A stretch of DNA of 64,000 nt from an uncultured Eubacteriales bacterium. Its GTDB lineage: Bacteria > Acidobacteriota > Aminicenantia > Aminicenantales > Saccharicenantaceae. The DNA lies in contig CAZPEP010000005.1 in assembly GCA_964585685.1 (NCBI GenBank), positions 17,783 through 81,782 on the forward strand. Direction: 5' to 3'. Made by a program: the position numbers and the translations under genes. Shown one piece after another: positions 6,523 to 57,902 of this stretch. A model generated the notes under the pieces. That model had not been told where the DNA came from. It did no database searches and saw nothing but the letters and a program-made list of their open reading frames with translations. Each line of letters opens with the position of its first letter. Within the stretch, counting starts at the first letter, position 1.

Positions 6523-6594
6523 GCAAGGACCTCGCTATCATAATCAAAATCGCGGCGGATTTCAATATGTTTCCCCGAGAGGAGTTCCCCTAAC

Positions 6595-11281: not shown

Positions 11282-11290
11282 CGGCAGGCC

Positions 11291-15060: not shown

Positions 15061-15142
15061 AGACGAAAGGAGGTGTGGACGAACCGAAACGCACGATGCA
15101 AAAGAAAGGTTCTAAGCGTCTAAGAGGGGAAATATTAAAGGA

Positions 15143-17971
15143 GTGCAAACAATGAGAAAAAGGGCTTTCACATTTTTTCTATTCTGCATTCTGTTTCTGA
15201 GTGCAGCCTCGATGGTTCTGGCCCAGTTCGGGCAGACCGGTTCCATTAACGGGACGGTCAAAGACTCCGAGGGGGCGCCCCTTCCGGGTGTTGGCGTAAC
15301 GATCAAATCGCCAGCGCTCATTCTGCCCGAGATGAACACGTTGACCAACCAGCAGGGGATCTATCGTTTTCCGTCCCTGGCGCCCGGGAAATATGAGGTC
15401 ACGTACGCTCTCCAGGGGATGAGCACGCTCGTACGAAAAGATATCATCATTACCGCCAGCAACACGACGACGATCGACGTGACCCTGGAGCTCATGAAGC
15501 TCAATGAGAACATCGTCGTGACGGGCCAGACTCCGACTGTGGACATCCAGTCAACGACCCGCACCACGAACTTGGACAAAGATTTTCTGGCATCTATTCC
15601 GGGCTTCCGGGTCCTGGACGCCTATTTCAACATGACGCCCGGCGTTGTTTCCGAATCAAGCGCCGGCGGCGGCCCCATGTCGAGTGCCAACGGAGGCGCC
15701 GTCCGGGACAACGCCTTTAAAATCGACGGCGTCAGCATGAGTGCTCCGGATGTGGGAACGCAGAAAGGAGAGGTCGGCATGGACATCATGGAAGAACTCT
15801 CCATCCAGTCCGGGGGCCTTCCGGCAGAATACGGAGATACCCAGGGGACGCTGGTCAACGTCGTCACCAAGTCCGGAGGGAACACCTTCAGCGGGTCGGC
15901 CAGCTTCTATTACAACAGCGACAAGCTTCAATCCGACAATACCAAAGGGACAGCCCTCGAGGGCAGGTTCAGCGGCTATAAATATATCTATGAACCGGGG
16001 ATCACATTAGGAGGACCCATCATCAAGGATAGGCTTTGGTTTTTCACCAACCTCGGCCTTACCAAGCGCGCCGTCAATATCGCCGGCTTCCCCTATGACC
16101 AAGCCACAACAGTCCCGGCTCTCGAGACCCGATACAACCCATATTTCAAGCTCACTTTCGTACCCAGCCAAAAGAACAAGTTCGTTCTCTCGTATGTCTA
16201 TGCGAATCTGATCCAGGATAATGCGGGTGCCAGCCCCAATTTCACTGAGGAGGCAACCTTCAAATGGGACGCCCCGCAGCATATTCTTAACGCCCAATGG
16301 ACTCATTTTTTCAACGACAGCTTCTTTGCTGATCTCAAGGTAGGCTATTTAGCGTCGAAAGATAATCTGGTGCCCATAAACGAGGGGGCGATCTATGTGG
16401 ATGTCCTGACAAATCGCTATTCAGGAGCTTACCCGTTCAAGGACCTCTATTCGGCGTCCCGGCTGCAGGGGAATGTCAACCTGACCTATTTCAAGGATAA
16501 CTTTGTCGGTTCCCACGAATTCAAGTTGGGAGGCGAATTCCAGGCAACGGACGCAACCGAGGATTTCATACCGGCGCGAGATCCCAGGAATGGCCTCAGC
16601 CAAATACTAACGGCGGATGGATATCCTCTATTCGGAATCTGGTTCTCCGAAAAGCATGATCAAGCAAAGACGATGGACTTTTCCGCCTTTGTTCAAGATA
16701 CCTGGAAACCGGCAAAAAGATTGGCCTTCAATCTGGGGCTGAGATTTTCCCACCAGAGGGGGATCATTCCGGCTCAGAATGAAAGCGAGGGGCCTCAGAC
16801 GTTCCTTGGAGCCAATTTTAATAGAAGCGTTACCTCGGCCTATACTCCCATCAAGCGGACAAATATTTCTCCGCGTGTCGGGCTGATCTATGACATCGTG
16901 GGCGATGGAAAGACTCTGTTTAAAGCGAGCTATTCCCGGTACATCCAAGCGAACCTGATGCAATATTTCACCGAGGTCAATCCGAACTCCATCTGGGATT
17001 ACGTCCAGCTCCTCAACCCGGATTTTACACCCATGCCGGACGGCTACCTTGATGCTAATTTTCCAAATCCTGGCAAAGTCGGTTACGGCAACGTGAAATT
17101 GAAATCCCCCTACACGGATGAGTTCACAATTGGCCTGGAGAGGGAGCTTTTCACGGGCTGGTCTCTGGCGCTCCGATACATGAAAAGAATGGACCGAAAT
17201 CTTCTCGAGGACGCAAATGCCAGCCAGCTCGACATTGATAAACTTGTCAACAACGGAGAGCTCGTCTGGACCAATTGGACCCAGGTCTCTTTTGTCGATC
17301 CCTATGACGGTCAGCAGGAATACTTCTGGAGCCAGAACGAGATTTTGCCGGCCGACATGTATATGATCAATCCTCCCGGCGCTAAGAGAGATTTTGACGG
17401 GATCGAAGTTGTCCTCAACAAGAGGTATTCGCAAGGCTGGTCCTTGATGGCCTCCTATGTCTATCAGAACTCCCGGGGCCTCATCGGAACCGATTATGTC
17501 GACAGCTGGAGCGGAGCCGATTATTATGATGACCCCAACGCGCACATCAACGCGGTCGGAAAGCTTCTCCTGAATCGTCCCCATCAGTTCAAGCTGCAGG
17601 GCATGGTCAAAGGCCCGTGGGGCGTCAACGTCGGCGGCTATTTCAGGGCCTACTCGGGACAACGGTACACCCGGCAAGTTTCCAGTTATGATCTGGGGAT
17701 TGATGTCAACCAAGGAGAAGCGACCGTCAACGCGGAAACAAGAGGAATCCGCTCACTCCCCGCTCAGGTAATTCTCGACCTCAGGTTGGAAAAGACCTTC
17801 CACCTTCAGCGAATTACGTTTGGAATCTTCGCCGATTGCTTTAATCTCTTCAACGGGAATAAGGCTACAGAAGTCCAGATCGTATCCAGCAGCTCAGCCA
17901 TCGTCTTTGGCCAGATGGTTGCCATCCAGGACCCGCGGATCTTCAGGCTCGGAGCCAGATTCGAGTTTTAG
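15143..17971 (+). CDS. TonB-dependent receptor with N-terminal carboxypeptidase-regulatory-like domain
   Basis: 942 aa. Signal peptide, CarbopepD_reg-like N-terminus (GSINGTVKDSEGAPLPGVGVTIKS), beta-barrel body, terminal aromatic ...RLGARFEF. RBS AAGGAG upstream. Confidence 0.75.
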   Translation: MQTMRKRAFTFFLFCILFLSAASMVLAQFGQTGSINGTVKDSEGAPLPGVGVTIKSPALILPEMNTLTNQQGIYRFPSLAPGKYEVTYALQGMSTLVRKDIIITASNTTTIDVTLELMKLNENIVVTGQTPTVDIQSTTRTTNLDKDFLASIPGFRVLDAYFNMTPGVVSESSAGGGPMSSANGGAVRDNAFKIDGVSMSAPDVGTQKGEVGMDIMEELSIQSGGLPAEYGDTQGTLVNVVTKSGGNTFSGSASFYYNSDKLQSDNTKGTALEGRFSGYKYIYEPGITLGGPIIKDRLWFFTNLGLTKRAVNIAGFPYDQATTVPALETRYNPYFKLTFVPSQKNKFVLSYVYANLIQDNAGASPNFTEEATFKWDAPQHILNAQWTHFFNDSFFADLKVGYLASKDNLVPINEGAIYVDVLTNRYSGAYPFKDLYSASRLQGNVNLTYFKDNFVGSHEFKLGGEFQATDATEDFIPARDPRNGLSQILTADGYPLFGIWFSEKHDQAKTMDFSAFVQDTWKPAKRLAFNLGLRFSHQRGIIPAQNESEGPQTFLGANFNRSVTSAYTPIKRTNISPRVGLIYDIVGDGKTLFKASYSRYIQANLMQYFTEVNPNSIWDYVQLLNPDFTPMPDGYLDANFPNPGKVGYGNVKLKSPYTDEFTIGLERELFTGWSLALRYMKRMDRNLLEDANASQLDIDKLVNNGELVWTNWTQVSFVDPYDGQQEYFWSQNEILPADMYMINPPGAKRDFDGIEVVLNKRYSQGWSLMASYVYQNSRGLIGTDYVDSWSGADYYDDPNAHINAVGKLLLNRPHQFKLQGMVKGPWGVNVGGYFRAYSGQRYTRQVSSYDLGIDVNQGEATVNAETRGIRSLPAQVILDLRLEKTFHLQRITFGIFADCFNLFNGNKATEVQIVSSSSAIVFGQMVAIQDPRIFRLGARFEF

Positions 17972-46092: not shown

Positions 46093-46165
46093 GCCAGCGT
46101 AGCTCAGTCGGTAGAGCGGCTGATTCGTAATCAGCAGGTCGGAGGTTCGATCCCTCTCGCTGGCT
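46093..46165 (+). tRNA. tRNA-Thr (anticodon CGU)
   Basis: GCCAGCG-TA-GCTC-AGTCGGTA-GAGC-G-GCTGA-TTCGTAA-TCAGC-AGGTC-GGAGG-TTCGATC-CCTCT-CGCTGGC-T. No encoded CCA. The 3' 48 nt recur three times downstream (att copies). Confidence 0.8.
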
Positions 46166-46349
46166 CTCCCATATTCCCCCCATATAGCCCTCCGGAATCA
46201 ATCATTTAGGCCGGAGGCGTGTCCGCGTTGTCGTTCCCGTCAACTCCATCGGATTCCGCTATTTTCCAGTATCTTTTGGCAAAAATTTGGTCATCGGAAT
46301 TCGCTTGCTCTTTTCGGACTACGCGATAAGATATAAACAGGATCATAAT

Positions 46350-46673
46350 ATGCCTTGGGCTTTGTTGAAGTGTGAGGATTGCGGCAGGTTTTATCGGCAT
46401 TACCCGGTCGGGGAAGTGGAGCGATGGATAAATAAGGGGATGAACCCCAGCCTCCGTAGTGACAAGGCCCACTTTGCCAGGCAGGTCAAGAAACTGGAAG
46501 CACTGTGTCCTTACTGCCGGGAAGCGCTGAACGGGATGCCCTACTTTCCCTCTCGGACCAAGTGCCGTATCTGCAATAGAGACGCCGGGCGAGATAAGCA
46601 CGGGAATTGCAGGTTTTGCGGGGGGCCCTTGGGCGTCCTTGTGAGCAAGACGTTTTCCCGCCGGAAACGCTAA
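46350..46673 (+). CDS. small Cys-rich (4x CxxC) zinc-ribbon protein, hypothetical
   Basis: MPWALLKCEDCGRF...CPYCREAL...CRICNRD...CRFCGGP. Start chosen at internal Met. Element-encoded. Confidence 0.35.
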   Translation: MPWALLKCEDCGRFYRHYPVGEVERWINKGMNPSLRSDKAHFARQVKKLEALCPYCREALNGMPYFPSRTKCRICNRDAGRDKHGNCRFCGGPLGVLVSKTFSRRKR

Positions 46674-46841
46674 AAAGGGAAAATTGCCTCGGTGGACCCT
46701 AAAAATAAATTAAAATAATTTCTAATGTCCACAACCCTTTAAACAACAATAACTTACGCCCATCCGTCGGAAAGCATAGCGATCGGACGACGTGCTCAAA
46801 ACCCCAGAAAACAGGTCTTTTTTCACCATATTCTTACTATA

Positions 46842-47189
46842 GTGAAGGCGGTAAAAATGACGAAGAAAGAAAGAGCGGACCAGGCAGTTCAAGACGTACT
46901 GAACTCGCCTCTTATACGGCATATCATTGCCAGCCTCAACCCTGACATGGCCGGCCTTCGGAGAGCGATAAGGGCCACCCTTGGGGAGGTCGCAGAGGCC
47001 GCCAGGGAGGAGTTTCATGACGAATGGGAGGAGGCCGCGCGCGGCTCCCTGACCGAGAAGGTCGCATTGGCAAACGCACTCAATGTGCCGTTCAAGAAAC
47101 TGTGGCCTCAAACCTATGATCAAGTCTCGGAGATGTTAGCTACCACGGGTATGCGTTCGAAGCCCAAGACGAAAAAAGCAAAAGGCTAA
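46842..47189 (+). CDS. hypothetical protein (element-encoded)
   Basis: 115-aa ORF, acidic/helical, no recognisable motif. Confidence 0.3.
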   Translation: MKAVKMTKKERADQAVQDVLNSPLIRHIIASLNPDMAGLRRAIRATLGEVAEAAREEFHDEWEEAARGSLTEKVALANALNVPFKKLWPQTYDQVSEMLATTGMRSKPKTKKAKG

Positions 47190-47511
47190 CTGACTGCCCA
47201 CTTCCGATGCGGCTTCTTAGATGCAGGGAAGCCGTAGGCGGCCCACCGACCGGACGCGACATCTAGTCTCAACGCGCCGCGGAAAACGCTAGGGCTCAGG
47301 CCCGGCGAAACCGAGACCCACAGGAGACTCTTATGTCTCTCAAACCCAAGGCCCCTGTCTTGACCTTCGCTGATGACATGGTCGCGCGGGACTTCTATCG
47401 CCGACTGAGGGAGAGGCTTACGGTCGCCGAGAAAACCCACCTTCTCGGAGGCGAGCCCGACCCCCTGACCTATCGCCTGAGGCTCCTTTCCCTAGCAGAA
47501 AAGCACGGCAT

Positions 47512-47709
47512 ATGAACATCGAGGAGCGTCATTTTGTGCGCCCGCAGGAGTTTGCGGGCCTTTATGGCCTGTCGGCAAAGCACGTCTATGATCTCTTGAG
47601 TCGGCGACTACTGCCGGCAACGAAGCGGAAGGGTTGCGGCTGGCTGATCGATCGCATCCGATTTGAGAAAGAGCTCGAGGATTCCATTGGAAAGCGTTAC
47701 CCAAGCTGA
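47512..47709 (+). CDS. helix-turn-helix DNA-binding protein (excisionase/AlpA-like HTH_17)
   Basis: 65 aa. FAGLYGLSAKHVYDLLSRRLLPATKRKGCGWLIDRIRFEKEL resembles MerR-superfamily excisionase-type HTH. Confidence 0.45.
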   Translation: MNIEERHFVRPQEFAGLYGLSAKHVYDLLSRRLLPATKRKGCGWLIDRIRFEKELEDSIGKRYPS

Positions 47710-49168
47710 GGGCGTTCTTGCCGGGCTCCTGATTGATCTCCCCCGGCTCGAGCAATACGAACTTGCGGACTCCATGTTCGAGGGGCGTGCCCGCCGCGTC
47801 TTCCAGAGTTTATCAAGCCTCTGGGAGGAACGCAGGGTTGAAAAGCTCGGGCCTGCCGATATCGTGGAGCTCAGCGAAAAGGCCGGGGGCGACGGCATCC
47901 TGGCCTATATCACCGAACTGATCGGACCCTGGGCGCCCGTCAACGAGGCTCTGTTCCGTGATGTTTATACCCGCTTTCGGGCCCGACAGATCAAAGGCCG
48001 CCTTCTACGGAAGGTTGAGGCCTTAGCCAAGCTCCCGTCGGGTATCGAGCTCGATATTGACGAGATCCGAGCGGATATCGACGAACTGGACCGGATCTCC
48101 GAGGCAACGGGTTCCCGTCTAGCGGAGCGGGCCTCGGGCGATGTCAAGGTTCGCGCCATCCCCTGGCTTTTCCCGGGCGTGCTGGCAACCCACATGGCGA
48201 CCGGTATCACGGGCGACGCCGGAAACGGCAAGACGCTTGTCGCCGTCGATATGTCCGCAAGGGTCACCGTCGGCAAGGCCTTCCCTCTCTACGGCAAGCC
48301 CGGAGCGCCTGTTAAAGGGCACGTCTTTTATGTCACGTCCGAGGGCGTTCCTGAAATGATCCTGGTCCCGCGGCTCATTGCCGCCGGCGCGGACCTCTCC
48401 AAGATCACGATCATCGAGGGGATGTATCTTCGCAAGGGCGAGTTCTCGATGTTCGATGTCACCCAGCACCTTCCGAAGCTGGAGAAGCGGGCGCGAGACT
48501 TCCCGGACCTCAAGCTGATCGTGCTCGATCCCATCGCCTCTTTCCTTCCCGAGCGGATAAATCCCAACCAGGCAAACAGCGTCCGCCAGGCGATGGATAG
48601 GGTCTCCAATTTGGCCTACAAGCTCGGCATTGCAGCCGTGACCGTCATGCACTTCGCTAAGGCCTCGGCGGGCGTCAAGGCCATCCACAGGACGGCCGGA
48701 AGCGGCCAATTCGAGGCGGCCCTGAAGATGTCCTGGTCCGTGATAAGGCGCGAGGGAGACGCCCGGAACGCTCGCCTCTTGGTGCCGCAAAAATCGAATA
48801 TTACGGGCGGCTATAAGAGCCTGTCCTTTGGTATTCATCAGGTCGAGTTCCCCGCCCCCGACAACCCAGAAGAGGTCATCACCACGGCCAAGATCGAATA
48901 TGGCGATCTCGTCGATGAGGATCCCGAGACGCTGATAAGCCCGTCCCAGGAAAGCGATAACCACGTTGCCAAGGCAACAGAATTCCTCTCCAAGAAGCTC
49001 AAAGAGGGGACGACGCTCTACGCGGCCCGCCTGATTGACGAGGCCGAAGACCAGGGCATCCCCAAATGGGCCCTCTATAAGGCTAAGGACCGAATAGGCA
49101 TCGAGCACGACAAGGAAGGCCACTTCCAAGGCCGGACGTTTTGGTATCTACCCAAGCGGAAAGACTGA
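47663..49168 (+). CDS. RecA-fold replication ATPase (AAA_25/RepA-like, DnaB-C-terminal-like)
   Basis: Walker A GDAGNGKTLVAVDM, Walker B-like LKLIVLDPIASF, followed by RecA-fold strands. Typical of replication/primase-helicase proteins of plasmids, ICEs and phage satellites. True start possibly downstream (MFEG...). Confidence 0.65.
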   Translation: MRKSSRIPLESVTQAEGVLAGLLIDLPRLEQYELADSMFEGRARRVFQSLSSLWEERRVEKLGPADIVELSEKAGGDGILAYITELIGPWAPVNEALFRDVYTRFRARQIKGRLLRKVEALAKLPSGIELDIDEIRADIDELDRISEATGSRLAERASGDVKVRAIPWLFPGVLATHMATGITGDAGNGKTLVAVDMSARVTVGKAFPLYGKPGAPVKGHVFYVTSEGVPEMILVPRLIAAGADLSKITIIEGMYLRKGEFSMFDVTQHLPKLEKRARDFPDLKLIVLDPIASFLPERINPNQANSVRQAMDRVSNLAYKLGIAAVTVMHFAKASAGVKAIHRTAGSGQFEAALKMSWSVIRREGDARNARLLVPQKSNITGGYKSLSFGIHQVEFPAPDNPEEVITTAKIEYGDLVDEDPETLISPSQESDNHVAKATEFLSKKLKEGTTLYAARLIDEAEDQGIPKWALYKAKDRIGIEHDKEGHFQGRTFWYLPKRKD

Positions 49169-49192
49169 TGCTCCCTAAAGCCTATATATCAA

Positions 49193-49255
49193 AACATAGG
49201 TAAACATAGGTAAACATAGGCTTCCCTATCTTCTCCTATGTTCGCCTATGTTTGC
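49193..49255. repeat. iteron-like array: 3 direct AACATAGG(TAA) repeats followed by 2 inverted CCTATGTT repeats
   Basis: aaACATAGGtaaACATAGGtaaACATAGGcttccctatcttctCCTATGTTcgCCTATGTTtgc. It lies right after the replication ATPase gene and before the putative small-terminase-like gene. Candidate origin or packaging site. Confidence 0.5.
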
Positions 49256-49449
49256 ACTTTTATAGGCTCAGAAGATAGCGGGAGGACGGCGACAGGCGCC
49301 TGCCCATTAAGCCTCATCGTCCCCCCAAGAAGCGGGGGCGACCATCTAACTGCCAATCGCATGATTATCAGGCGGGAAGGCTTAAATAATGACCAAAACT
49401 TTGCCATTCCAAGCCTTAGAGAAGCCCGTCAAAAGGAGCCCAAAACCTC

Positions 49450-50079
49450 ATGGATAATGCATCTAAGCGCAAGAAAAAGCGAAGGATAGGGCGCCCGCCC
49501 ATGCATGGAGCCTTCGCCCTGGTCTATCGGGACGAGATAGTAAGGCAATTTCCCGAGCTGACCAGGTACACCAGGGACGTTTATGACGGGCTCATGGAGG
49601 ATCTGGCGCCAGAAGGCAAGGACACCCTGCCCGTTGCTAAGCGGATCATTCTGGACAGGTTGCTCTCCAAGCTCCTAACAGCGGGTCTTCTGGACATCTA
49701 CTTGGGCCAGCACGGGATTCTACAGCGGGGGGCGCTCGAAAGGAAGGTCCTCGAATGCGAGCCTGCCGTCAATACCTGGCTGGCCGTCAATCATGCAATC
49801 CTGAGGGATCTTCAGGCTCTGGGCCTAGAGAGAAAGGAACTCGAGCCGTTGGATCTCAACCCGCTCGAGATAGCGGCGGAGATCGACGCTAGGAAGATAG
49901 CCAATGGGGCATGCGAGGTAGGGAAAATCGATCCTGGGGCATCCCAGGGGCATAAAACAGGCATTCAGGAGGCTAATGATGAAAGCAATCACGATCAAAC
50001 TGGACAGGCGGAGGCGGCTGCGCCTGACGCCAACATCGATCAAGCTGGCGGAGAAGACGATGGGGAAGTCAATTGTTGA
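49450..50079 (+). CDS. putative DNA-binding protein, terminase-small-subunit-like (tentative)
   Basis: 209 aa. N-terminal basic KRKKKRRIGRPP motif as in many phage small terminase subunits. Otherwise unassignable. Confidence 0.3.
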   Translation: MDNASKRKKKRRIGRPPMHGAFALVYRDEIVRQFPELTRYTRDVYDGLMEDLAPEGKDTLPVAKRIILDRLLSKLLTAGLLDIYLGQHGILQRGALERKVLECEPAVNTWLAVNHAILRDLQALGLERKELEPLDLNPLEIAAEIDARKIANGACEVGKIDPGASQGHKTGIQEANDESNHDQTGQAEAAAPDANIDQAGGEDDGEVNC

Positions 50080-50317
50080 AATAGGCGACCATATACAGGT
50101 GTTGTCCCCCTCGATAGAGCTGGTATCAACGGTGCTCTGGCTTCTCTTGATCGATGAGGACCCCGCGCTGACCATTCAGGGCACGGGCCAGATCCTCAAG
50201 GACTATCTCTCGGGCGCCGGCTTCTTAAAGCTGGCATGGAGGACCTGGCGGCTAAAGCGGGCATTCGGTAAATATGGACGGGCGCTCAAAGAGTTTGCCC
50301 GTGAGTTTGGAGGTTAA
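49976..50317 (+). CDS. hypothetical protein, possibly tail-assembly-chaperone-like (overlaps previous ORF in another frame, directly upstream of tape-measure gene)
   Basis: 113 aa. Position and overlap reminiscent of gpG/gpGT chaperone ORFs preceding tape-measure genes. No sequence motif recognised. Confidence 0.25.
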   Translation: MMKAITIKLDRRRRLRLTPTSIKLAEKTMGKSIVEIGDHIQVLSPSIELVSTVLWLLLIDEDPALTIQGTGQILKDYLSGAGFLKLAWRTWRLKRAFGKYGRALKEFAREFGG

Positions 50318-50318
50318 T

Positions 50319-52637
50319 ATGCCATTCAATGCGGGTAGTCTAGTCGCAACGCTGGAATTAAACACCAAGGGCTGGACGGAGAAGATCCAGGCGGTCCAGA
50401 AGGACAAACAAGCGCTTCTGACCTCCGCCGCCAATATCGGCAAGGGGTTCCAGGACATGGGCCTCAAGATGACGGCAGCCGGCGGCGCGCTCGTCTTGGG
50501 TCTCGGCGCGATGATAAAGAAGACAGCCAACGCCGGGGACGCATTTTGGGACCTGAGCCAGAAGACGGGGATCTCGGTTGAAACGCTGTCCTCGTTCAAG
50601 CTGGCGGCGGATACCTCGGGAACCTCTATCGACGGCTTTGCGGTGGGGATGCGGGGATTGTCCAGGGCCGTCGGCGATGCCAAGACAGGCACGGGTGACG
50701 CAAAGAAAGCGTTCGATGCCCTGGGCGTGTCATTCGTGGATGCTGACGGGAAGGCGCGTCCGCTCGATCAGCTCTTCCTTGATCTCGCCGGGAAGTTCTC
50801 CGGCATGGAGGACGGGGCGACGAAGACCGACCTGGCCATGAAACTGTTCGGGCGGTCCGGGGTGGAGCTCATCCCCATGCTCAACCTCGGAAAGCAGGGG
50901 CTCAAGGACTTGACCGACCGGGCCAAGGAGCTCGGCATCACGTTCAACACCGAGGCCGCGAAGAAATGCGACGAGTTCAATGACAGCCTGGATATTCTCA
51001 GGGCTTCGGTCGGGGCGTCGTTCCGGGGGATCGCGCTGGAGTTGATCCCGACCCTTCAGGACCTTGCTACAAAGGTCGCGTCGGCGATCGGCAAGGTCAT
51101 CGAATGGACCAATGCACATCCCGCCTTGACGGAGGCCATCGGCAAGCTCGCCCTGGGCCTGGCCGGCATCGGGACGATCCTCGCGGTTTCGGGGCCGGTT
51201 CTCATGGGAATCGGGGCGCTGATGACCAACATTGGGGCGATCAAGCTCTTGGCCTTGAAATCCATTGTGTTCACGTTCGCCCTGGCCGGTACGGCGATCG
51301 TCGCGATGGGCGTCGTAAAAATGATTGACGATTTCAAGCGGCTCCGGCTCGAAGGGGAGACGACGGCGGAGGCGCTCAGGACGATGTTCCTGAATTTCAA
51401 TCCGTTCAAGAGCCTCTCCCGTGACAAGATCAGCGAGACGGTCCTGGCGATGGATGAAGCGCGGAGCTCCTCCATCAACCTGACGGGCGCAGTCAGCCTG
51501 CTCGATATCGCGTTTAATGCCATCAAGGGAGCCATCGAGGACGGGGCGGTCAAGCCTGCGAAGACCCTGGCCAGCACCGTCACGGACGTTCTGATCCCCG
51601 CGGTGGACAATGCCAAGCTCGCCCTCGCCAGCATGGTGCAGACGATCGCCCTCGAGGTCACGCCGAAGACCGCGGGGCTTGAGGCGCTCATCAAGGACTT
51701 CACCCCGGCGCTCCAGGGCGTCGATTGGCAGGCACTTCCCGAAGGCGCGAAGCCGGCCCTGGATCAGGTTGGGATTGCCGTCGAGACGATGAGAGAGAGG
51801 ATCGCGGACAATTTCGCGGGATTATTCCTTGATATCAAATCGGGATTCGTCGATACGTTCACCCGTTCCGTCGATGAGGGATGGGGCTTCTCGCGTTTTA
51901 TGGATGAGATATTTAAGACGATCCGGACCTCTCTGATCAGAACGATCGGCGAGATGCTCGCTGACTGGATGTTCGGATTCATCGATAAGATCAAGGCCTC
52001 GGCAACATCTGCCGGGAAGACGATCGCCGAAAGCATCGGAGGCGCGACCGGGGGCATCGGGAAGGCGGCCGGGTCGATGGCCGGCTCCTTCCTTTCGGCG
52101 GCGGGATCTATCGCCAGCATCGTCACCGCCGTCGCCTCGGTCGTCTCCCTGCTCAAGAGCCCTCCCACGGGCGCGGGCGACGGCATGGGCCGCGTCGTCG
52201 AGCGACAGGACCAGCAGACCTCGCTCCTCACGCGCATATTTGAGGACATCAACGGAAATCTCAAGCCGACGCTCTGGTCGATCTCCAGCAAGAGCGATAC
52301 CCAGATCAAGCGTCTGGATACGGCCAACGCCTGGCTCAAGTCGATGGATGCGGCGCTCAAGGGAATGAAGGGCGCGGCAAGCGGGGCCGTCTCGACGCAG
52401 ACAGAAATGATGGTGGTCCACGGCACGCGGAGCGATCCCGAGTACATCATGCGAGCCTCTCAGCTCAACGCGGGCATCATGCCCAAGGCGACCAGCGGCG
52501 GCGGGCGACAGGCGCCCGTCGTCGTCAATATCAAGCCCGTGGTCATTGAAAAACGGGACCGCTATATCATCGAGTTTGTTCAGGACAGCCTGAATCACGG
52601 CACGCTGAGGATCCCCGCCTCGGCGGTAGGCGGGTGA
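50319..52637 (+). CDS. phage tail tape-measure-like protein (TP901-family N-terminal core)
   Basis: Start ATG 50319 preceded by GGAGG RBS. N-terminal region FKLAADTSGTSIDGFAVGMRGLSRAVGDAKTGTGDAKKAFDALGVSF...LAMKLFGRSGVELIPMLNLGKQGLKDLTDRAKELGI matches the conserved TP901-type TMP core. Internal TM helices and Gly/Ala-rich repeats follow. Confidence 0.7.
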   Translation: MPFNAGSLVATLELNTKGWTEKIQAVQKDKQALLTSAANIGKGFQDMGLKMTAAGGALVLGLGAMIKKTANAGDAFWDLSQKTGISVETLSSFKLAADTSGTSIDGFAVGMRGLSRAVGDAKTGTGDAKKAFDALGVSFVDADGKARPLDQLFLDLAGKFSGMEDGATKTDLAMKLFGRSGVELIPMLNLGKQGLKDLTDRAKELGITFNTEAAKKCDEFNDSLDILRASVGASFRGIALELIPTLQDLATKVASAIGKVIEWTNAHPALTEAIGKLALGLAGIGTILAVSGPVLMGIGALMTNIGAIKLLALKSIVFTFALAGTAIVAMGVVKMIDDFKRLRLEGETTAEALRTMFLNFNPFKSLSRDKISETVLAMDEARSSSINLTGAVSLLDIAFNAIKGAIEDGAVKPAKTLASTVTDVLIPAVDNAKLALASMVQTIALEVTPKTAGLEALIKDFTPALQGVDWQALPEGAKPALDQVGIAVETMRERIADNFAGLFLDIKSGFVDTFTRSVDEGWGFSRFMDEIFKTIRTSLIRTIGEMLADWMFGFIDKIKASATSAGKTIAESIGGATGGIGKAAGSMAGSFLSAAGSIASIVTAVASVVSLLKSPPTGAGDGMGRVVERQDQQTSLLTRIFEDINGNLKPTLWSISSKSDTQIKRLDTANAWLKSMDAALKGMKGAASGAVSTQTEMMVVHGTRSDPEYIMRASQLNAGIMPKATSGGGRQAPVVVNIKPVVIEKRDRYIIEFVQDSLNHGTLRIPASAVGG

Positions 52638-52638
52638 C

Positions 52639-54120
52639 ATGGATATAACGGACGCCCTGCACGACAAGACAATCTTCGGGCCGCTGTTCAAGGACCCGAA
52701 GACCTGGCACGCATGGGAGGTCTATCTCCGGGGGCTTTTCGGACTGCCGATCGAGGGCGCCGAGGATCTGGCTCTTTTTAGGGACTGCACCGGGCTCGAG
52801 GCGCCCCCGCGCGAGCGGGCCCGGGAGAGCTATGTCATCGCCGGGAGGCGGAGCGGCAAGAGTTATACATCGGCGCTCATCGCTGCGTTCCTGGCCTGCT
52901 TCAAGGACTGGAAGCCTTATCTGAGTCCGGGGGAGCGCGGCTGGATCTTCGTCATCGCCGTGGACAAGGCCCAGGCCGGGATCATCAAGGCGTACATCTC
53001 GGGCATCTTCCATCGGGTGAAATGCCTGAAGGGCCTGATCGCAAAAGAGACACAAGAGACGATCGAGCTCAAGAACGGGATCTCGATCGCCGTGAAGACG
53101 GCGTCCTTCCGTTCCGTCCGGGGCTATACAATTTTAGCGGCGTTGCTCGAAGAGATCGCATTCGCAAGAAGCGAGGACAGCGCGAACCCCGACAAGGAAA
53201 TTTTAGCGGCCGTCCGCCCGGCGCTGGCGACGATCCCCGACAGCCTGCTCCTCGGCATCAGCACACCCTATAGCCGGAGCGGGGTCCTTTGGGAGCAATT
53301 CAAGAACTACTACGGGAAGCCTGGCGGGCCGCTGATCTGGAAGGCGGCGACGCGGATAATGAACCCGACGATCGACAGCCGGCTCATCGCTAACGCGCTG
53401 AAAGAGGACCCGCAGGCGGCCCGGGCGGAATGGGAGGCCGAATGGCGCGAAGATATCGAAGCGTTCCTTACGCAGGAGCTCGTCGAGGCCGTCACTATCA
53501 CGGGCCGGTTCGAGTTGCCGAGGATTGCCGACGCCGAATACTACGGCTTTATAGACCCGAGCGGCGGCCGGCAAGACTCTTTCACGATGGGGATCTGTCA
53601 CCGGGATAAAACGGGAAAGATCGTCCTGGACGTTCTCCGGGAGCGCCGTCCGCCCTTCCAGCCGCAGGGCGTCGTCGAAGAGTTCTCGGCCGTCCTGAAA
53701 TCGTTCAAGGTCTCGAGCGTCGAGTCTGATAAATACGCCGGCGAATGGGTCCCCGAGGCCTTCAGAAAATACGATATCGAAGTTAAGAACGCCGACATGA
53801 CGGCGAGCGAGCTGTATCTGAATCTTCTCCCGCTTGTCGCGAACGGGACGGTTGAACTTCTGGACAATAAGCGGCTGCTCGCGCAGCTCACAGGGCTTGA
53901 GCGTCGGGTCCGGAGCGGAGGGAAGGACCTTGTTTCCCATTATGCAGGGGGGCATGACGATCTCGCGAACGCCGCGGCCGGAGCCTGCGTCATGGTCGCG
54001 CAGACAGAGGCCGATGGCGGGGGCCTGTTTATTTCGGCCGGGTCCGTCTATGGCGACGACGTTCGGCCGGCGTTTCAACATTCTCCAGGCTGGCGGACGC
54101 TGACCTGGGGAAAGAACTGA
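52639..54120 (+). CDS. phage terminase large-subunit-like protein (ATPase + RNaseH-like nuclease)
   Basis: Walker A AGRRSGKS, acidic Walker B region (IFVIAVDKAQ), C-terminal nuclease-like motifs (FIDPSGG...DSFTMGI..., GGHDDLANA). Confidence 0.6.
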   Translation: MDITDALHDKTIFGPLFKDPKTWHAWEVYLRGLFGLPIEGAEDLALFRDCTGLEAPPRERARESYVIAGRRSGKSYTSALIAAFLACFKDWKPYLSPGERGWIFVIAVDKAQAGIIKAYISGIFHRVKCLKGLIAKETQETIELKNGISIAVKTASFRSVRGYTILAALLEEIAFARSEDSANPDKEILAAVRPALATIPDSLLLGISTPYSRSGVLWEQFKNYYGKPGGPLIWKAATRIMNPTIDSRLIANALKEDPQAARAEWEAEWREDIEAFLTQELVEAVTITGRFELPRIADAEYYGFIDPSGGRQDSFTMGICHRDKTGKIVLDVLRERRPPFQPQGVVEEFSAVLKSFKVSSVESDKYAGEWVPEAFRKYDIEVKNADMTASELYLNLLPLVANGTVELLDNKRLLAQLTGLERRVRSGGKDLVSHYAGGHDDLANAAAGACVMVAQTEADGGGLFISAGSVYGDDVRPAFQHSPGWRTLTWGKN

Positions 54121-54166
54121 TGGGGCAAGCGAGGCCCGGAACTACGCGCTGACGGAGGTTTGCCGA

Positions 54167-54442
54167 ATGGAAGTATTTGCAGGGGGTTTACCGTGGGACG
54201 TAAAGGACGGGGACCTGGAGGGCCTATTCAAGCCCTTCGGGGAGGTCGCGCGGATTAGCGTCGTCCGCGATCCGAGGACGGGAGAGGCGCGCGGCTTCGG
54301 CTTTGTAGAAATGCCGAATGACGGCGAGGCCAGGGCCGCGATCACGGCCTTGAATCAGACGGAGCTTCGCGGAAGGACGCTTCGCGTTTCCGAATCGCTG
54401 AAATCGCGCGGACCATATCCGAATCATGGGAGGACAAATTGA
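54167..54442 (+). CDS. RRM-domain RNA-binding protein
   Basis: 91 aa. RNP-2 (EVFAGGLPW) and RNP-1 (RGFGFVEM) motifs. Gly-poor short C-tail. Confidence 0.7.
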   Translation: MEVFAGGLPWDVKDGDLEGLFKPFGEVARISVVRDPRTGEARGFGFVEMPNDGEARAAITALNQTELRGRTLRVSESLKSRGPYPNHGRTN

Positions 54443-55233
54443 AATACGAACAGACGATCCTTGAAGCGTTTCAGGCTCGCGAAAAAGAGATCAAGGCCGA
54501 GTGCGACAATCTTGATCGCGAAATGGACAAGAAAAGGCGCGACCATGAGAAAATCCAGGCCGACGCCCTGGCGAAGCTCACGGGCGCGCGGGAAGCCCTG
54601 GCCGCTATGAAGGCCGATTATCTCACGCTCGAATCCGGGCTCGCGGCCCAGGCCGAAGGCGAGCTCAGGACAACGGAGGCGACGGCTGAGAAAGTGAAGG
54701 CGGGCGAGGTTTCGCTTCGGAACTTCATGGAGGACGGGCTTTCGGCAAGCGCGATCAAAGCGAAGGCCCAGGCCCAGGCAAACGAAAAGCTCAGGGAGGG
54801 TCGGAGGATCATTCTCGAAAAGGCCCTGGAGATATTCAAGCTCGAAGCCGTGGAAGCCGAGGCGAGGAAAAATATTATTTTCTGCGCGACCTATCCGGGG
54901 CAAACTCAGGTCAAGAAACTCAAGGCCGAAGTCGAAACGCTTGAGCGTAGGATCGGCGAAGTTTTTAGCGGTTATTATTTGGCGACGGCCGATATGGACC
55001 GGGCCAAGCTCAACGTCGCGCTGAGCGAAGGGAAGTCGGTTTCCGGCACGACCTGGGACGCGCTTTCGGTCGATGAGCTTAAGGACTTGAGATTCGATCC
55101 GCGCGTTCAGAAATACGCGGGGGACCTCGAAGCGTTCATCGGCACGGCCGACCCGGCCAAACGGTTCAATGTGTTCCTTCGCGTCGCGGCCTGGGACAAT
55201 ACGCCGGGCTTGGCGATCCTGGCGGCATTATGA
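54439..55233 (+). CDS. coiled-coil hypothetical protein (element-encoded)
   Basis: 264 aa, Ala/Glu/Lys-rich heptad-like N-terminal half. ATGA-type overlap with RRM gene. Confidence 0.35.
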   Translation: MKYEQTILEAFQAREKEIKAECDNLDREMDKKRRDHEKIQADALAKLTGAREALAAMKADYLTLESGLAAQAEGELRTTEATAEKVKAGEVSLRNFMEDGLSASAIKAKAQAQANEKLREGRRIILEKALEIFKLEAVEAEARKNIIFCATYPGQTQVKKLKAEVETLERRIGEVFSGYYLATADMDRAKLNVALSEGKSVSGTTWDALSVDELKDLRFDPRVQKYAGDLEAFIGTADPAKRFNVFLRVAAWDNTPGLAILAAL

Positions 55234-55718
55234 ACAAGCGCACATTCACGGCGAAGGAGATCGCGACACTCTTAACAAGCCAAGCCGGGAGCGATATTGA
55301 ATTGAACCTGGGCAACGGGCTGCGGGCCGTCCGCATGGCGACGAAGGACAGGCCCGTTTTCCAGATCGATCGGGCGGGGAAAGACCTGCATAATCTGGAC
55401 GACGCGGACCCGGCCGAACTCGCGGAGCTATCGGCTATCGTGTGGACCTTCGCGGACCAGTTTGGGCCTACGGAGGACGCCCTGGAGGAGCCCTTGACGC
55501 CGGAGCGGTTTAAAGACAAGCCGGAGCCGGAGAACATCGAGCCGGACCCGTTAGGGCTCACGCCGGACCATTTGCGGGGGATCATCGCGGACCCTGGGCT
55601 CGCGCGAAGGCTCGCGGCAGGAACAGCAACGGCCGAAGATTTGATTGTGCCGGACGCGCTCAAGGACGAGCCCGACGACAGCGATCCATTGGCCTATCCG
55701 GGGGACGCCTCTATTTGA
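55230..55718 (+). CDS. hypothetical acidic protein (element-encoded)
   Basis: 162 aa, overlaps previous gene by 4 bp. Confidence 0.3.
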   Translation: MNKRTFTAKEIATLLTSQAGSDIELNLGNGLRAVRMATKDRPVFQIDRAGKDLHNLDDADPAELAELSAIVWTFADQFGPTEDALEEPLTPERFKDKPEPENIEPDPLGLTPDHLRGIIADPGLARRLAAGTATAEDLIVPDALKDEPDDSDPLAYPGDASI

Positions 55719-55959
55719 CGCGCTTGGATTCGAGCCAGGCCTCAACGTCGGCCTTCTTGAACAAGACATGGCGCTTCAGTTTGAAGTACGGAATGGGGCT
55801 ATCCGGGTCGTTCATCCGCCGGAGCAAGGAGCCCCTAGAGATTTTTAGATATTCCTGAACCTGCTCCCTGGTAAGGGTCTCGTCTGAGAAGCTCGTCTTT
55901 TCGGACATTTTGACTGACTTCATCGACACAAGGATAAGTTCCCTGGCCTTAAAAGTCAA
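55711..55959 (-). CDS. AlpA/excisionase-like helix-turn-helix DNA-binding protein
   Basis: 82 aa. LTREQVQEYLKISRGSLLRRMNDPDSPIPYFKL...VLFKKADVEAWLESK resembles AlpA/Xis-family HTH. Lies beside the integrase region. Confidence 0.55.
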   Translation of the reverse strand: MTFKARELILVSMKSVKMSEKTSFSDETLTREQVQEYLKISRGSLLRRMNDPDSPIPYFKLKRHVLFKKADVEAWLESKRVK

Positions 55960-56001
55960 GGAGCAACAAAATGCTTGACTTTCGTTTAACTAGACCCCAT
56001 T

Positions 56002-56412
56002 ATGTTTAAGGACGGTCCAAATGGCCGTTACTTAATCAAGGAGGGCTTAATGGCAAAGACAAATGGAAAGGGGCCGGGGGAGAACCGCGACGCATGGGAA
56101 GGGGTGGCCCGCGTTGAATGGCTCAAGGGGTTTCCTTTCGTCGGCGAACCCGACGCACAATTCGAGGCAAGGGCTGGGATTGTCCCTGCCGCGGGCATCC
56201 AGGGCTCGAGCCTTTTGCTGGCGCTGAACTTCTCAAAGAACGAGACAACCGAAGGCGTCAACCTCACCTTGTCATTCGACCAGGCGAAGGTGTTGTCTGA
56301 AATTCTACACAATTTCGTCGCCTCCCGGGAAATGGCACATCAGGCGGTCCGCGGCGCATTCGTCAATCCCGAGGGCGCCGTGCGTTGGGGAACCTATCCT
56401 CGGGCGCTTTGA
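56002..56412 (+). CDS. hypothetical protein (element-encoded)
   Basis: 136-aa ORF between excisionase-like and integrase genes. Alternative start MAKTNGKG. Confidence 0.3.
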   Translation: MFKDGPNGRYLIKEGLMAKTNGKGPGENRDAWEGVARVEWLKGFPFVGEPDAQFEARAGIVPAAGIQGSSLLLALNFSKNETTEGVNLTLSFDQAKVLSEILHNFVASREMAHQAVRGAFVNPEGAVRWGTYPRAL

Positions 56413-56490
56413 TCTTCTTTCAGAGGCCGGGGCTTCGGTCCCGGCCCGAGTTAAGAGGATCAACCGAATCCTCAAAAGGAAAACGGAAGA

Positions 56491-57564
56491 ATGAAGATTT
56501 ACAAGAACGAAAAAGGCAAGTGGTGCTATCGTTTCATGGCCAACGGCCAGCAGGCCCGTAAAGTCGTCGGCCTCTCGAAGCAGGAATGCGAGGCTGCGGC
56601 CTGCGCGGCCCGGGACAAGATCAAACGCAGCGGCTTCGGGCTCAAGGGAACGCCCAAGAATCTCTTTTTTGAGGACTTCGCGAAGGAATACCTGGACCGC
56701 TATTCCAGGGTGTACAAACGGTCCTGGAGAAGCGACGAGACCTCCTGCAAGCACCTGGCCGAGTTCTTTAAGGGCAAGTACCTTTCGGCAATCACCCGGA
56801 GCCTCGTCGAACACTACCAGGCCAAGCGCAAGGATGAGGTCGCGCCGGCTACGGTGAACCTCGAGATCGCCTGCCTGAAGAAGATGCTGAGCAAGGCCGT
56901 GGATTGGGATTACCTCGATTCTAATGTTGCCGCCAGGGTCAAAAAGTTCAAGCTGAACAATGCCCGGGAGAGGGTCCTTGACGCCGACGAGGCCCGGCGC
57001 CTGATCGAATGCGCGGCGCCTGCGCTCCAGCCGGTTCTCATCATAGCCCTAAAGACGGGAATGCGGCGGGGCGAGATCCTGAGCCTGAAGTGGTCGGACG
57101 TGAATTTCATCAAGGCCTTCATCCAGATCAAGGACACGAAGAGCGGAGAGCCCCGCAAGGTTCCCCTGAGCCCCGCTGCCCGGGAAGCCCTGAAGGCCCT
57201 CCCGCGAACCTCCGATTTCATCTTCTACAACGCCGAGACGAAAACGCACGTCAAGAGCGTCGTGACGGCGTTCGATACGGCCTGCACCAGGGCCGAGATC
57301 AAGGGGCTCCGCTTCCACGACCTCCGGCATACGTTCGCGACCTGGTACATGGAGAGGGGCGGCGACGTTGTGGCCCTGTCCAAGATCCTCGGGCATCATT
57401 CGCTTCAGATGACGCTCCGGTACTGCAATCCGACAGAGGGCGCGATGCTCCAGGCAGTTGAGAAGATGGACGCGATCTTGGGAAAACCCGAGGCCGAAAC
57501 CGGCAAAAATTTGGTCATCGAGAAGCCCGAAGCTGTCGTAACTGCGCCATTATTAAGCAATTAG
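56491..57564 (+). CDS. tyrosine-type site-specific recombinase / phage integrase
   Basis: 357 aa. Catalytic-domain motifs R (TGMRRGEIL), HDLRHTF, LGHHSLQMTLRY (H-x-x-R...Y). N-terminal SAM-like domain. The gene ends 14 bp before the att copy. Confidence 0.85.
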   Translation: MKIYKNEKGKWCYRFMANGQQARKVVGLSKQECEAAACAARDKIKRSGFGLKGTPKNLFFEDFAKEYLDRYSRVYKRSWRSDETSCKHLAEFFKGKYLSAITRSLVEHYQAKRKDEVAPATVNLEIACLKKMLSKAVDWDYLDSNVAARVKKFKLNNARERVLDADEARRLIECAAPALQPVLIIALKTGMRRGEILSLKWSDVNFIKAFIQIKDTKSGEPRKVPLSPAAREALKALPRTSDFIFYNAETKTHVKSVVTAFDTACTRAEIKGLRFHDLRHTFATWYMERGGDVVALSKILGHHSLQMTLRYCNPTEGAMLQAVEKMDAILGKPEAETGKNLVIEKPEAVVTAPLLSN

Positions 57565-57577
57565 ACATGAGGCCCTT

Positions 57578-57627
57578 GCGATTCGTAATCAGCAGGTCGG
57601 AGGTTCGATCCCTCTCGCTGGCTCCAT
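57578..57627 (+). repeat. att copy 1: direct repeat of tRNA-Thr 3' 48 nt with encoded CCA
   Basis: GATTCGTAATCAGCAGGTCGGAGGTTCGATCCCTCTCGCTGGCTCCA is identical to tRNA positions 28-72. It is followed by TCAAAACTCCCCATATGAAGCGCCAGAATCA, related to sequence after the tRNA gene and after copy 3. Confidence 0.7.
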
Positions 57628-57730
57628 CAAAACTCCCCATATGAAGCGCCAGAATCAGAGACTTAGACCTCTAGCCGGAGGTCTGCCCGTCTTGCCTGCG
57701 CTTGCCCCATAAAACAAGGAATTAGCCCCT

Positions 57731-57811
57731 AATGTGGCACAAATGTGGCACAAGCGTGGAACACGCCAATAATAACCTTTGAATAGGCGTTCCGGACTCC
57801 GGATTCAAAGG
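57731..57811. repeat. three tandem 11-bp direct repeats (AATGTGGCACA x2, AGCGTGGAACA) plus 36-bp palindrome CCTTTGAATAGG...CCGGATTCAAAGG; arm-site-like / regulatory
   Basis: Direct repeats at 57731-57765. Palindrome 57776-57811 with perfect 9-bp arms. Upstream of kinase gene and adjacent to a tRNA-like fragment. Confidence 0.35.
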
Positions 57812-57840
57812 TCGAAGGCTCGAATCCTCTCAGGCGCGCC
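57807..57840 (+). other. tRNA-Arg-like 3' fragment (variable loop, T-arm, acceptor 3' strand), second copy
   Basis: AAAGGTCGAAGGCTCGAATCCTCTCAGGCGCGCC aligns with AAAGGTCGGAGGTTCGAATCCTTTCAGGCACGCC of the 6167..6237 remnant (about 6 differences over 34 nt). Confidence 0.3.
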
Positions 57841-57902
57841 CCGTTTGACTTCCCGCCTATCCCTCTGTTAATCTGAGTCCAAGTTAGAGGAGGGGACCAA
57901 AC

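Follow-up and report, generated by a model that had tools for sequence, protein, structure and literature searches.

Within the 64,000 nucleotides of Aminicenantales DNA analysed here (the window), one block carries genes for integration, replication and DNA packaging together with a tail gene, and the question it raises is what kind of element could make use of such a combination. The original prediction, made from a single sequence, described a compact integrative element and hedged between a helper-dependent phage satellite, a defective prophage or GTA-like remnant, and a tape-measure-like protein with a different role. In our judgement, the region is probably an intact helper-dependent phage satellite. 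The integrative part of the description was borne out by a perfect 45-nt direct repeat that bounds a unit of 11,458 bp and whose left copy forms the end of a tRNA-Thr gene (Table 1). With an integrase at one end and this att repeat at the tRNA gene, integration is site-specific, as in PICIs. The G+C content is 0.52-0.62 within the element versus 0.65-0.72 in the left flank, all ORFs of the element are open, and the tRNA was the only match in an Rfam scan. The 19-nt arm repeat has a counterpart geometry in two related loci, L008 (24 nt) and L025 (22 nt), with unrelated repeat sequences. We also considered whether Logan contig L005 (11,470 nt, matching the element in length) was an excised circle and rejected this, as its ends lie ~28-29 nt inside the 45-nt att repeat, where a k=31 de Bruijn unitig would end at a repeat, and it is therefore no evidence of excision. 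The junction of right arm and core, which would recover attR or attP copies, had no exact match in the JGI metagenome contigs, a set apparently without the source contig.

Table 1. Predicted features of the element and its integration site, in window coordinates.
Feature	Position	Strand	Evidence or remark
tRNA-Thr(CGT)	46093-46166	+	ARAGORN; Rfam tRNA 70.5 bits
attL core, last 45 nt of tRNA-Thr(CGT)	46122-46166	+	Direct repeat D1
19-nt exact repeat, left arm (putative arm-type integrase site)	46278-46296	+	Repeat family D16
128-aa Cys-rich (zinc-ribbon-like) protein	46287-46673	+	Sub-threshold Zn_ribbon_6 and CxC7 matches; JGI calls a 107-aa version
115-aa protein, possible regulator (weak)	46842-47189	+	HTH_35 E 0.05; phrog_769 repressor E 0.05
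60-aa ORF	47333-47515	+	Called as a gene in L004 and L005; no family
65-aa putative HTH_17 DNA-binding protein, immediately upstream of replication gene	47512-47709	+	PF12728 1.6e-5; phrog_6401 4e-6
AAA_25 (RecA/DnaB-like) replication ATPase, 493-501 aa	47663-49168	+	PF13481 7e-23; primase/helicase PHROGs 2e-10 to 5e-5
Predicted small terminase (TerS), P27/HK97-like helical fold, disordered acidic tail	49450-50079	+	Fold matches and synteny
Tail assembly chaperone-like protein, 113 aa (85 aa with start at 50060)	49976-50317	+	phrog_2115 'tail protein' 2e-8; Phage_TAC_11 E 0.07
TP901-type tail tape measure protein, 772 aa, full length	50319-52637	+	phrog_8462 1e-42; TIGR01760 42.1 bits (cutoff 28.8)
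Large terminase (TerL), ATPase and nuclease	52639-54120	+	phrog_2 2e-21
91-aa predicted RRM-domain RNA-binding protein, cargo	54167-54442	+	PF00076 (RRM_1) 2e-20
264-aa protein, modelled as coiled-coil hairpin with small C-terminal domain	54439-55233	+	AF2 pLDDT 88; helices 7-79, 103-196
162-aa protein, co-occurs with 264-aa protein	55230-55718	+	No family; homologues in L039, L056, L057, L064
HTH_17 excisionase/AlpA-like protein	55711-55959	-	PF12728 3e-9; phrog_66 2e-7
136-aa protein, divergent from excisionase gene	56002-56412	+	No family
Tyrosine integrase	56491-57564	+	PF00589 1e-31; phrog_1 4e-74
19-nt exact repeat, right arm, within integrase 3' end	57502-57520	+	Repeat family D16
attR core, perfect copy of tRNA-Thr 3' end	57580-57624	+	Direct repeat D1

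Pfam and PHROG matches confirmed the gene set originally proposed, including the integrase, AlpA-like excisionase, RecA-fold ATPase, TerL-like protein and RRM protein, alongside several hypotheticals. The chaperone-like gene, the second HTH_17 gene and the 19-nt arm repeat are additional to that list. Two HTH_17 (PF12728) proteins are encoded. One matches a PHROG annotated as 'excisionase and transcriptional regulator' and keeps its position and strand in relatives, and the other, the 65-aa protein, keeps its position ahead of the replication gene. No element protein matched Phage_AlpA or Stl, and no master repressor was found. The AAA_25 ATPase matches the helicase parts of primase/helicase PHROGs, with no primase domain detected. 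A scan for promoters and terminators was uninformative apart from a divergent pair of promoter-like sites at 55931-56003, where the excisionase gene and the 136-aa gene diverge.

Pfam terminase models fell below threshold on TerL, and its profile gave weak matches to TerL nuclease domains among PDB sequences (E 0.2-0.3). Its PHROG match and the conservation of Walker A, Walker B and nuclease residues (G69-S75 of Walker A, E171-E172, D306, D364 and D440-D441, all invariant across 19 homologues) nevertheless mark it, at the level of sequence, as a real terminase. Homologues of this TerL number more than 4,800, some share of them phage genes. TerS, in turn, was not identified by sequence in Pfam, PHROGs, NCBIfam or PDB profiles, where fold comparison alone helped; the modelled fold and the synteny with TerL, whose start a TerS homologue abuts or overlaps in 34 loci, point to a small terminase and support the small-terminase-like call of the original prediction. 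Across elements, TerL is 46-85% identical, versus 26-35% for TerS and 27-55% for the integrase.

The original prediction had recognised no capsid, portal or tail-tube gene, and none was matched by any ORF in Pfam, PHROGs or NCBIfam, nor were a protease or head-tail connectors. Neither lysis genes nor pseudogenes of portal, capsid, tail-tube or lysis genes were detected in the element. The 264-aa ORF, which had been singled out with the 162-aa and 136-aa ORFs as a place where capsid or scaffold folds might hide, is the sole ORF of plausible capsid size, the remaining unassigned ORFs encoding at most 162 aa. We rejected it as a capsid, given that its model has no HK97 fold and is predicted to form a coiled-coil hairpin, for which a Foldseek search of the PDB returned generic coiled coils alone (E>0.1). 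The two smaller ORFs likewise belong to no family that profiles could detect. Homologues of the 264-aa protein occupy the same position downstream of TerL in part of the family of related loci, and tblastn gave no phage homologue; it is possibly an assembly or scaffold factor. The RRM protein was also found in L039 and L031.

The gene between the two terminase genes had been called tape-measure-like with a GGAGG ribosome-binding site, and this held: profile matches lie above cutoff (Table 1), and the motif occupies 50309-50313, 5 nt ahead of the ATG. Over its whole length, save for a ~100-aa internal gap, the protein aligns with the L053 phage tape measure, and both termini match. The chaperone-like protein weakly matches the gene in chaperone position of siphovirus locus L054, and a 1-nt gap separates the genes at both the chaperone-tape measure and the tape measure-TerL junctions. 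This pair was taken from a siphovirus tail module. Temperate siphovirus contigs L053, L054, L135, L136 and L137, which represent the tape-measure donors, encode tape measures 38-52% identical to that of the element over the full length, and sibling tape measures share 38% identity among themselves versus 48-52% with phage tape measures in normal tail modules. The donor phages appear to have a terminase unrelated to that of the element, and L053 begins with a partial gene that shows no match to the element's TerL.

One reading of a phage-derived TerS, TerL, chaperone and tape measure without capsid or portal is a defective prophage remnant or GTA-like relic, that is, a siphovirus after deletion of the head and most tail genes, and the order of tape measure and TerL could arise by deletion between tail and packaging modules on a circularly permuted prophage map. 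We consider this very unlikely. A compact backbone (replication, TerS, TerL, small genes, Xis, Int) is shared by the annotated loci and is found again in dozens of loci, at a variety of tRNA genes and in several cases with long exact att repeats. An integrase lies within 7 kb downstream of TerL in 45 of 115 related TerL loci, the others being mostly short contigs, and the ten units delimited by direct repeats or circularity span 7.7-14.6 kb and mostly adjoin tRNA genes. One relative (L027) is a circular contig of 8,430 bp, and another locus (L003) is a tandem pair. The invariant catalytic residues of TerL and the unrelated terminase of the tape-measure donors also argue against decay in place. 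Given that TerS is joined directly to TerL in most relatives, the tape measure represents an insertion and not a deletion junction. As for a GTA, RcGTA-type agents have a complete head-tail cluster and no integrase, att or replication module, whereas the element is the reverse, with integrase, att sites and ATPase but no head genes; the only GTA-related signal was the sub-threshold Phage_TAC_11 match (E 0.07). To our knowledge, GTAs have neither integrases nor att sites. Given the recurrent architecture, the intact ends, the circular relative and the tandem pair at another locus, we favour the satellite among the possibilities originally left side by side, and the remnant and GTA readings found no support. 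The small elements of this widespread family most likely parasitise helper phages, a dependence that we infer for this element too.

The placement of a tape measure before TerL had been noted as an oddity of this locus. The order is real but not peculiar to it, as it recurs in L055, L057, L013 and L093, while in L082 and L085 the tape measure lies upstream of TerS and in L108 a tail-fibre-like gene precedes TerL. In all, tape-measure genes of divergent sequence adjoin terminase genes in at least six other elements from three separate parts of the TerL tree, and unrelated cargo, for example a PC4-like protein or RusA, is likewise found in the TerS-TerL slot. Gene content across these loci identifies the junction as a cargo hot-spot in which the tape measure is a recurrent cargo, a property not visible from a single sequence. 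It could also be that the tape measure is a recent passenger in this element. An unlikely version of the satellite reading goes further and regards the chaperone and tape-measure genes as a non-functional passenger, left behind by recombination with a siphovirus and contributing nothing to the spread of the element. Most family members indeed lack a tape measure, with TerS directly abutting TerL in those 34 loci, the slot accepts other cargo, and the exact tape measure is confined to this element, its next relatives being at most ~50% identical, so that selection on it cannot be measured. Yet the 772-codon frame is intact, with its own ribosome-binding site and 1-nt gaps at both junctions, its termini match those of phage tape measures, and a cognate chaperone-like gene lies alongside. 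The recurrence of divergent tape measures beside terminase genes is hard to explain without selection, and we think that the pair is functional.

In other contigs, the same TerS-TerL family adjoins a portal gene (L080) or a major head protein gene (L092, L042). These contigs branch from within the integrase-linked elements in a TerL tree, the TerL of the element is 65-67% identical to those of L080, L073 and L092, and we regard contigs with TerS-TerL beside portal or capsid genes as candidate helper lineages. A helper siphovirus would trigger excision and replication of the element, whose TerS would select its own DNA and whose conserved TerL would dock on the helper portal and fill helper-made capsids. 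In the satellite families of the literature consulted, a TerL is present only together with portal and capsid genes (cf-PICIs and the Streptomyces satellites), so that docking of a foreign TerL on a helper portal is an assumption. The 264-aa protein, with its 162-aa partner, may act as a modulator of capsid assembly. The chaperone and tape measure, in turn, would be built into helper-made tails as a satellite-specified ruler and DNA-ejection protein, which might serve to suit the satellite to one particular helper, to give a shorter tail, to escape tape-measure-directed exclusion or to handicap the helper. On a broader scale, we tentatively suggest, as a possibility that we do not rate as probable, that the family reprograms two helper assembly lines: its own terminase would pick the DNA for capsids, while in a sub-lineage the chaperone and tape measure would set the tail ruler and DNA-ejection protein, the cassette being repeatedly swapped with phages to track helpers or escape tape-measure-directed exclusion. 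A scan of viral contigs with the tape measure gave no match.

The same genes could instead serve an integrative defence or interference island, in which the phage-derived terminase and tape measure would mainly sabotage an infecting phage by mis-packaging or tail-assembly poisoning, and which would move only through integrase events or occasional transduction. One relative encodes an ApeA/HEPN gene and a SocA_Panacea-like gene (a weak Pfam match), and in other systems satellites have been documented to interfere with the packaging and tail assembly of their helpers (10.1101/2024.04.22.590561; PMC11364771). We nonetheless hold this account to be decidedly unlikely for the element, in which no protein matched a PADLOC defence model and in which a highly variable TerS beside a conserved TerL is better explained by element-specific recognition of DNA than by a decoy function. 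In known satellites, moreover, interference does not exclude self-packaging.

Compared with known systems, the element, which we continue to read as a satellite, resembles PICIs in size class (11.5 kb versus a median of 9.5 kb for PICIs including SaPIs; de Sousa et al., 2023, PMC10085698). An integrase, a small terminase (here the predicted TerS) and site-specific integration are common to the two, and the accessory or defence cargo and tandem arrays of PICIs also occur among the element's relatives. The HTH_17 proteins and the AAA_25 ATPase of the element may correspond to the AlpA/MerR/Stl-type regulation module and the primase-replicase module of PICIs. However, PICIs typically encode no other structural or packaging genes, and in particular no large terminase, tape measure or tail chaperone, all three of which the element has. 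It also differs in its replication protein, an AAA_25 ATPase without a recognised primase domain, in having no recognised capsid-morphogenesis gene, and in its hosts, uncultured Aminicenantes-type bacteria. The cf-PICIs (Alqurainy et al., 10.1101/2022.09.08.507074) and the Streptomyces satellites MulchRoom and MiniFlayer (PMC10690885) have their own TerS and TerL, like the element, but supply the complete head themselves (capsid, portal, adaptor or connectors, and a protease or scaffold) and rely on the helper for tails alone (10.1101/2022.09.08.507074; PMC10690885). The element has the opposite partition, with tail genes and no head genes. Portal or capsid genes do accompany this TerS-TerL family on some contigs (L080, L092, L073). 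Satellite P4 of phage P2 is similar in genome size (~11.5 kb) and, like the element, has an integrase and a replication helicase; it depends on helper structural genes, as the element presumably does, but relies on the terminase of its helper and encodes neither a terminase nor tail genes, both of which the element has. A Sid-like scaffold role for the 264-aa helical protein would be speculation, and no element ORF had a Pfam or PHROG match to Sid, Psu, Delta or alpha primase at E<=0.1. Finally, the siphovirus contigs that represent the tape-measure donors and the portal- or head-linked contigs L080, L092 and L042 have complete head or tail modules, of which the element keeps only terminase, chaperone and tape measure, attached to its integrative-replicative backbone.

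Satellite families in the literature consulted follow one of two plans, with P4 and PICIs using the large terminase of their helper and cf-PICIs and the Streptomyces satellites encoding an entire head module (PMC10085698; 10.1101/2022.09.08.507074; PMC10690885). In the limited library searched, we found no satellite with a TerL but no capsid, none with a tape measure, alone or with a chaperone, and no description of the present family. Between PICIs and cf-PICIs there is a gap, which a widespread family that has retained just the terminase pair would fill; if our reading is true, it would also mean that helper portals can accept the TerL of a satellite. If the chaperone and tape measure are functional, satellites could edit tail length or the DNA-entry machinery, beyond capsid size and packaging specificity, and a 'tail-editing' satellite of this kind would mirror the cf-PICIs, which build their own heads and steal tails. 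The relatives are mostly Aminicenantes MAGs, from a phylum with almost no phage biology, and the family occurs, apparently in abundance, in sediment and soil metagenomes. Distant relatives are present in cultured Bradyrhizobium, at locus L029 of Bradyrhizobium viridifuturi SEMIA 690 and locus L036 of Bradyrhizobium genosp. P, where these predictions could be tested.

The original prediction of a compact integrative element with replication and packaging genes was confirmed. A repeat search of the window found a perfect 45-nt direct repeat, whose first copy is the 3′ end of a tRNA-Thr(CGT) gene, and the unit defined by the two copies (11,458 bp) has AAA_25 and TerL matches (table below). G+C content was 0.52-0.62 within the element versus 0.65-0.72 in the left flank, and both flanks are ordinary chromosomal sequence, encoding SMC and a PilZ protein to the left and a TPR-repeat Ser/Thr kinase to the right. 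Just inside the ends is another exact repeat, 19 nt long. Repeats at equivalent relative positions, unrelated to it in sequence, occur in the related loci L008 (24 nt) and L025 (22 nt), and we infer that all of these are putative arm-type integrase sites. Just beyond attR lie a tandem repeat and a degenerate tRNA-Arg(CCG) gene fragment matching positions 16-75 of the tRNA-Arg(CCG) of a related locus (L010), while the first ~70 nt past attR are weakly similar to the first ~70 nt past attL. Together, the features at 57625-57845 resemble what is left of a second, collapsed integrative element that may have belonged to a tandem array.

Features of the element, with genes called in order from attL to attR, and of related loci
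Feature	Position	Match or remark
tRNA-Thr(CGT) gene	46093-46166	
45-nt repeats (attL, attR)	46122-46166; 57580-57624	
19-nt repeats	46278-46296; 57502-57520	112 nt inside attL; 60 nt before attR
128-aa protein		Cys-rich; first gene
115-aa protein		
60-aa ORF		
65-aa HTH_17 protein		
AAA_25 ATPase		7e-23; also helicase parts of primase/helicase PHROGs
209-aa protein (TerS)		small terminase at fold level
113-aa tail-chaperone-like protein	starts 49976	phrog_2115 2e-8
GGAGG RBS of tape-measure gene	50309-50313	
772-aa tape measure		phrog_8462 1e-42; TIGR01760 above its cutoff
493-aa TerL		phrog_2 2e-21
91-aa RRM protein	54167-54442	RRM_1, 2e-20
264-aa protein		
162-aa protein		
HTH_17 excisionase-like protein		minus strand
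136-aa protein		
Tyrosine integrase		1e-31; last gene
Tandem repeat	57734-57766	ATGTGGCACAA-type
tRNA-Arg(CCG) 3′ fragment	57780-57840	~60 nt
L037 defense genes	4429-5731; 12745-14151	weak SocA_Panacea-like match; ApeA/HEPN gene
L040 mini-island	14122-16048	= L018 15122-17048
L028 unit	3443-16499	Saliniramus MAG
L104 reverse-transcriptase-like protein	7251-9323	690 aa
L039 RRM_1 protein	2297-2569	
L031 RRM_1 protein	3925-4182	

Single-nucleotide gaps separate the chaperone stop from the tape-measure start and the tape-measure stop from the TerL start, so that the three genes are predicted to be translationally coupled; the RBS noted for the tape-measure gene was located. Walker A (G69-S75), E171-E172 and the nuclease aspartates D306, D364 and D440-D441 of TerL were invariant across 19 homologues, and the terminase pair is apparently active. 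Homology of the chaperone-like ORF to phrog_2115 begins with its first residue, at 49976, and the ORF shares 104 nt (49976-50079), in a different frame, with the 3′ end of the TerS ORF. The reading frame for the disordered tail of TerS may thus now extend into the inserted cassette, and this would mark the junction of the insertion. The RNA-binding RRM_1 protein, of eukaryote type, is encoded directly 3′ of TerL in the element and at least one sibling, and occurs in the relatives L039 and L031.

That no capsid or portal could be recognized also held up. The model of the 264-aa protein (pLDDT 88) consists of two long antiparallel helices and a small C-terminal domain, with structure matches to generic coiled coils only, which rules it out as a capsid; no relative was found in GenBank phages. 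The other ORFs without assigned function are at most 162 aa, and no capsid or portal is hidden among the unassigned ORFs.

In gene content the element differs from described satellites. As defined previously (PMC10085698), PICIs are matched in integrase, small terminase (at the fold level) and size, and in part only in regulator and replicase; however, they typically lack other phage genes, while the element carries TerL and tail genes. It shares TerS and TerL with cf-PICIs and the Streptomyces satellites MulchRoom and MiniFlayer (PMC10690885), but lacks the capsid, portal and connector genes that define them. Assignments as a P4-like satellite, a GTA or a defective prophage were considered and rejected. 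A limited literature search found no satellite with TerL but without capsid genes, and none encoding a tape measure.

More than 4,800 TerL homologues were found, the best 120 listed being 61-85% identical, and those in the genome collection came mostly from Aminicenantes MAGs. Annotated contexts and our own ORF comparison of related loci revealed a shared backbone of HTH regulator, HTH_17, replication protein, TerS, a variable slot, TerL, one to four small genes, HTH_17 on the opposite strand and integrase. An integrase lies within 7 kb downstream of TerL in 45 of 115 TerL loci; six others are phage-type loci, and the remaining 64 are too short for a call. For ten units, direct repeats or circularity give lengths of 7.7-14.6 kb, and most adjoin tRNA-Arg, -Leu or -Thr genes; one (L027, a k141 contig of 8,571 nt whose ends overlap by 141 nt) forms a circle of 8,430 bp, and another locus (L003) holds a tandem pair. 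No other gene is nearly as conserved across elements as TerL (46-85% identity, versus 26-35% for TerS and 27-55% for integrase), and replication modules are exchanged between members (AAA_25 in some, an O-like initiator in L008). If family members were decay products of prophages, such a recurrent backbone, delimited units, circle, tandem pair and TerL conservation would not be expected; they agree with a mobile element that is stable and modular. Among the readings originally offered, we therefore favor, with moderate confidence, that of a putative phage satellite, given the recurrent modular backbone, the circle and the tandem pair.

Relatives with TerL ~46% identical occur in the alphaproteobacteria Saliniramus, Bradyrhizobium and Afipia (L028, L029, L030 and L036, of which L029 and L036 come from named Bradyrhizobium strains). 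The 13-kb Saliniramus unit lies between 46-nt tRNA-Thr repeats and carries integrase, AAA_25 protein and TerL, with no portal-sized ORF standing out; the design thus seems to reach beyond Aminicenantes.

The TerS and TerL genes adjoin or overlap, usually by 4 nt, in 34 loci, and in about as many a gap of 0.1-1.8 kb holds cargo such as a PC4-like protein, RusA or genes without assigned function. The chaperone and tape-measure pair of the window occupies this slot. The order with the tape measure directly before TerL was correctly noted, but it is no one-off oddity: it recurs in L055 (chaperone, 863-aa tape measure, TerL), L057 (tape measure of at least 740 aa, TerL, 264-aa and 162-aa homologues, integrase), L013 (chaperone and 578-aa tape-measure-like gene) and L093 (weak chaperone-like match and 593-aa tape-measure-like gene). 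A 760-aa tape measure lies upstream of TerS in L082 and L085, and a 1,059-aa tail-fiber-like gene precedes TerL in L108. In the TerL tree, these loci are spread over three separate parts, and tape-measure cargo is the most unusual feature of the family.

No close copy of the window's tape measure was found; the next relatives (790-1,216 aa) are at most ~50% identical, and all whose context was checked lie in ordinary siphovirus tail modules (terminator, tube, chaperones, tape measure, then proteins of ~255, ~230 and ~510 aa). It aligns at both ends with the 873-aa tape measure of a phage (L053), with ~100 internal residues missing. As a rule of thumb, tape measures set roughly 1.5 Å of tail length per residue, which would make the tail ~15 nm shorter. 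Between sibling elements whose TerL is 80% identical, tape-measure identity is only 38%, compared with 48-52% to phage tape measures, which points to repeated exchange with phages. Other cargo includes a mini-island in L040, enclosed by a third, 48-nt copy of the tRNA-Arg att repeat ~2 kb beyond attR, whose two 209-aa proteins with the phage tail-collar domain PF07484 are further tail-related cargo. L037, with TerL 85% identical to that of the element, carries defense genes of a kind common in phage satellites, and in L104 a TerS-TerL pair of the family is closely preceded by a reverse-transcriptase-like gene together with helicase and methyltransferase genes.

Both integration ends of the element are intact, and it encodes an integrase paired with an excisionase, a replication ATPase and a complete tape measure with chaperone, and no head genes. 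Under the satellite reading, a helper phage would set off excision and replication, TerS would choose the element's DNA, and the conserved TerL would dock on the helper's portal and fill helper capsids. The coiled-coil protein may change how capsids are assembled, and the tape measure and chaperone would join helper tail assembly.

TerS-TerL pairs of this family also occur beside a portal (L080; phrog_2662 1e-61), a major head protein (L092; phrog_10 1e-31), capsid-like and portal-like genes (L042) and an unannotated layout resembling a head module (L073), and an 84-kb phage contig (L043; TerL 45% identical) carries DNA polymerase, UvsX and SbcCD. In the TerL tree, L073, L080 and L092 branch within the integrase-linked elements; they may be phages or capsid-forming satellites and give the best lead towards the helper lineage. 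TerS and TerL of L073 and L080 are ~90% identical, and directly downstream lie unrelated ~500-aa genes, encoding a phrog_27684 protein without assigned function in L073 and the portal in L080, indicating sharp mosaicism right after TerL.
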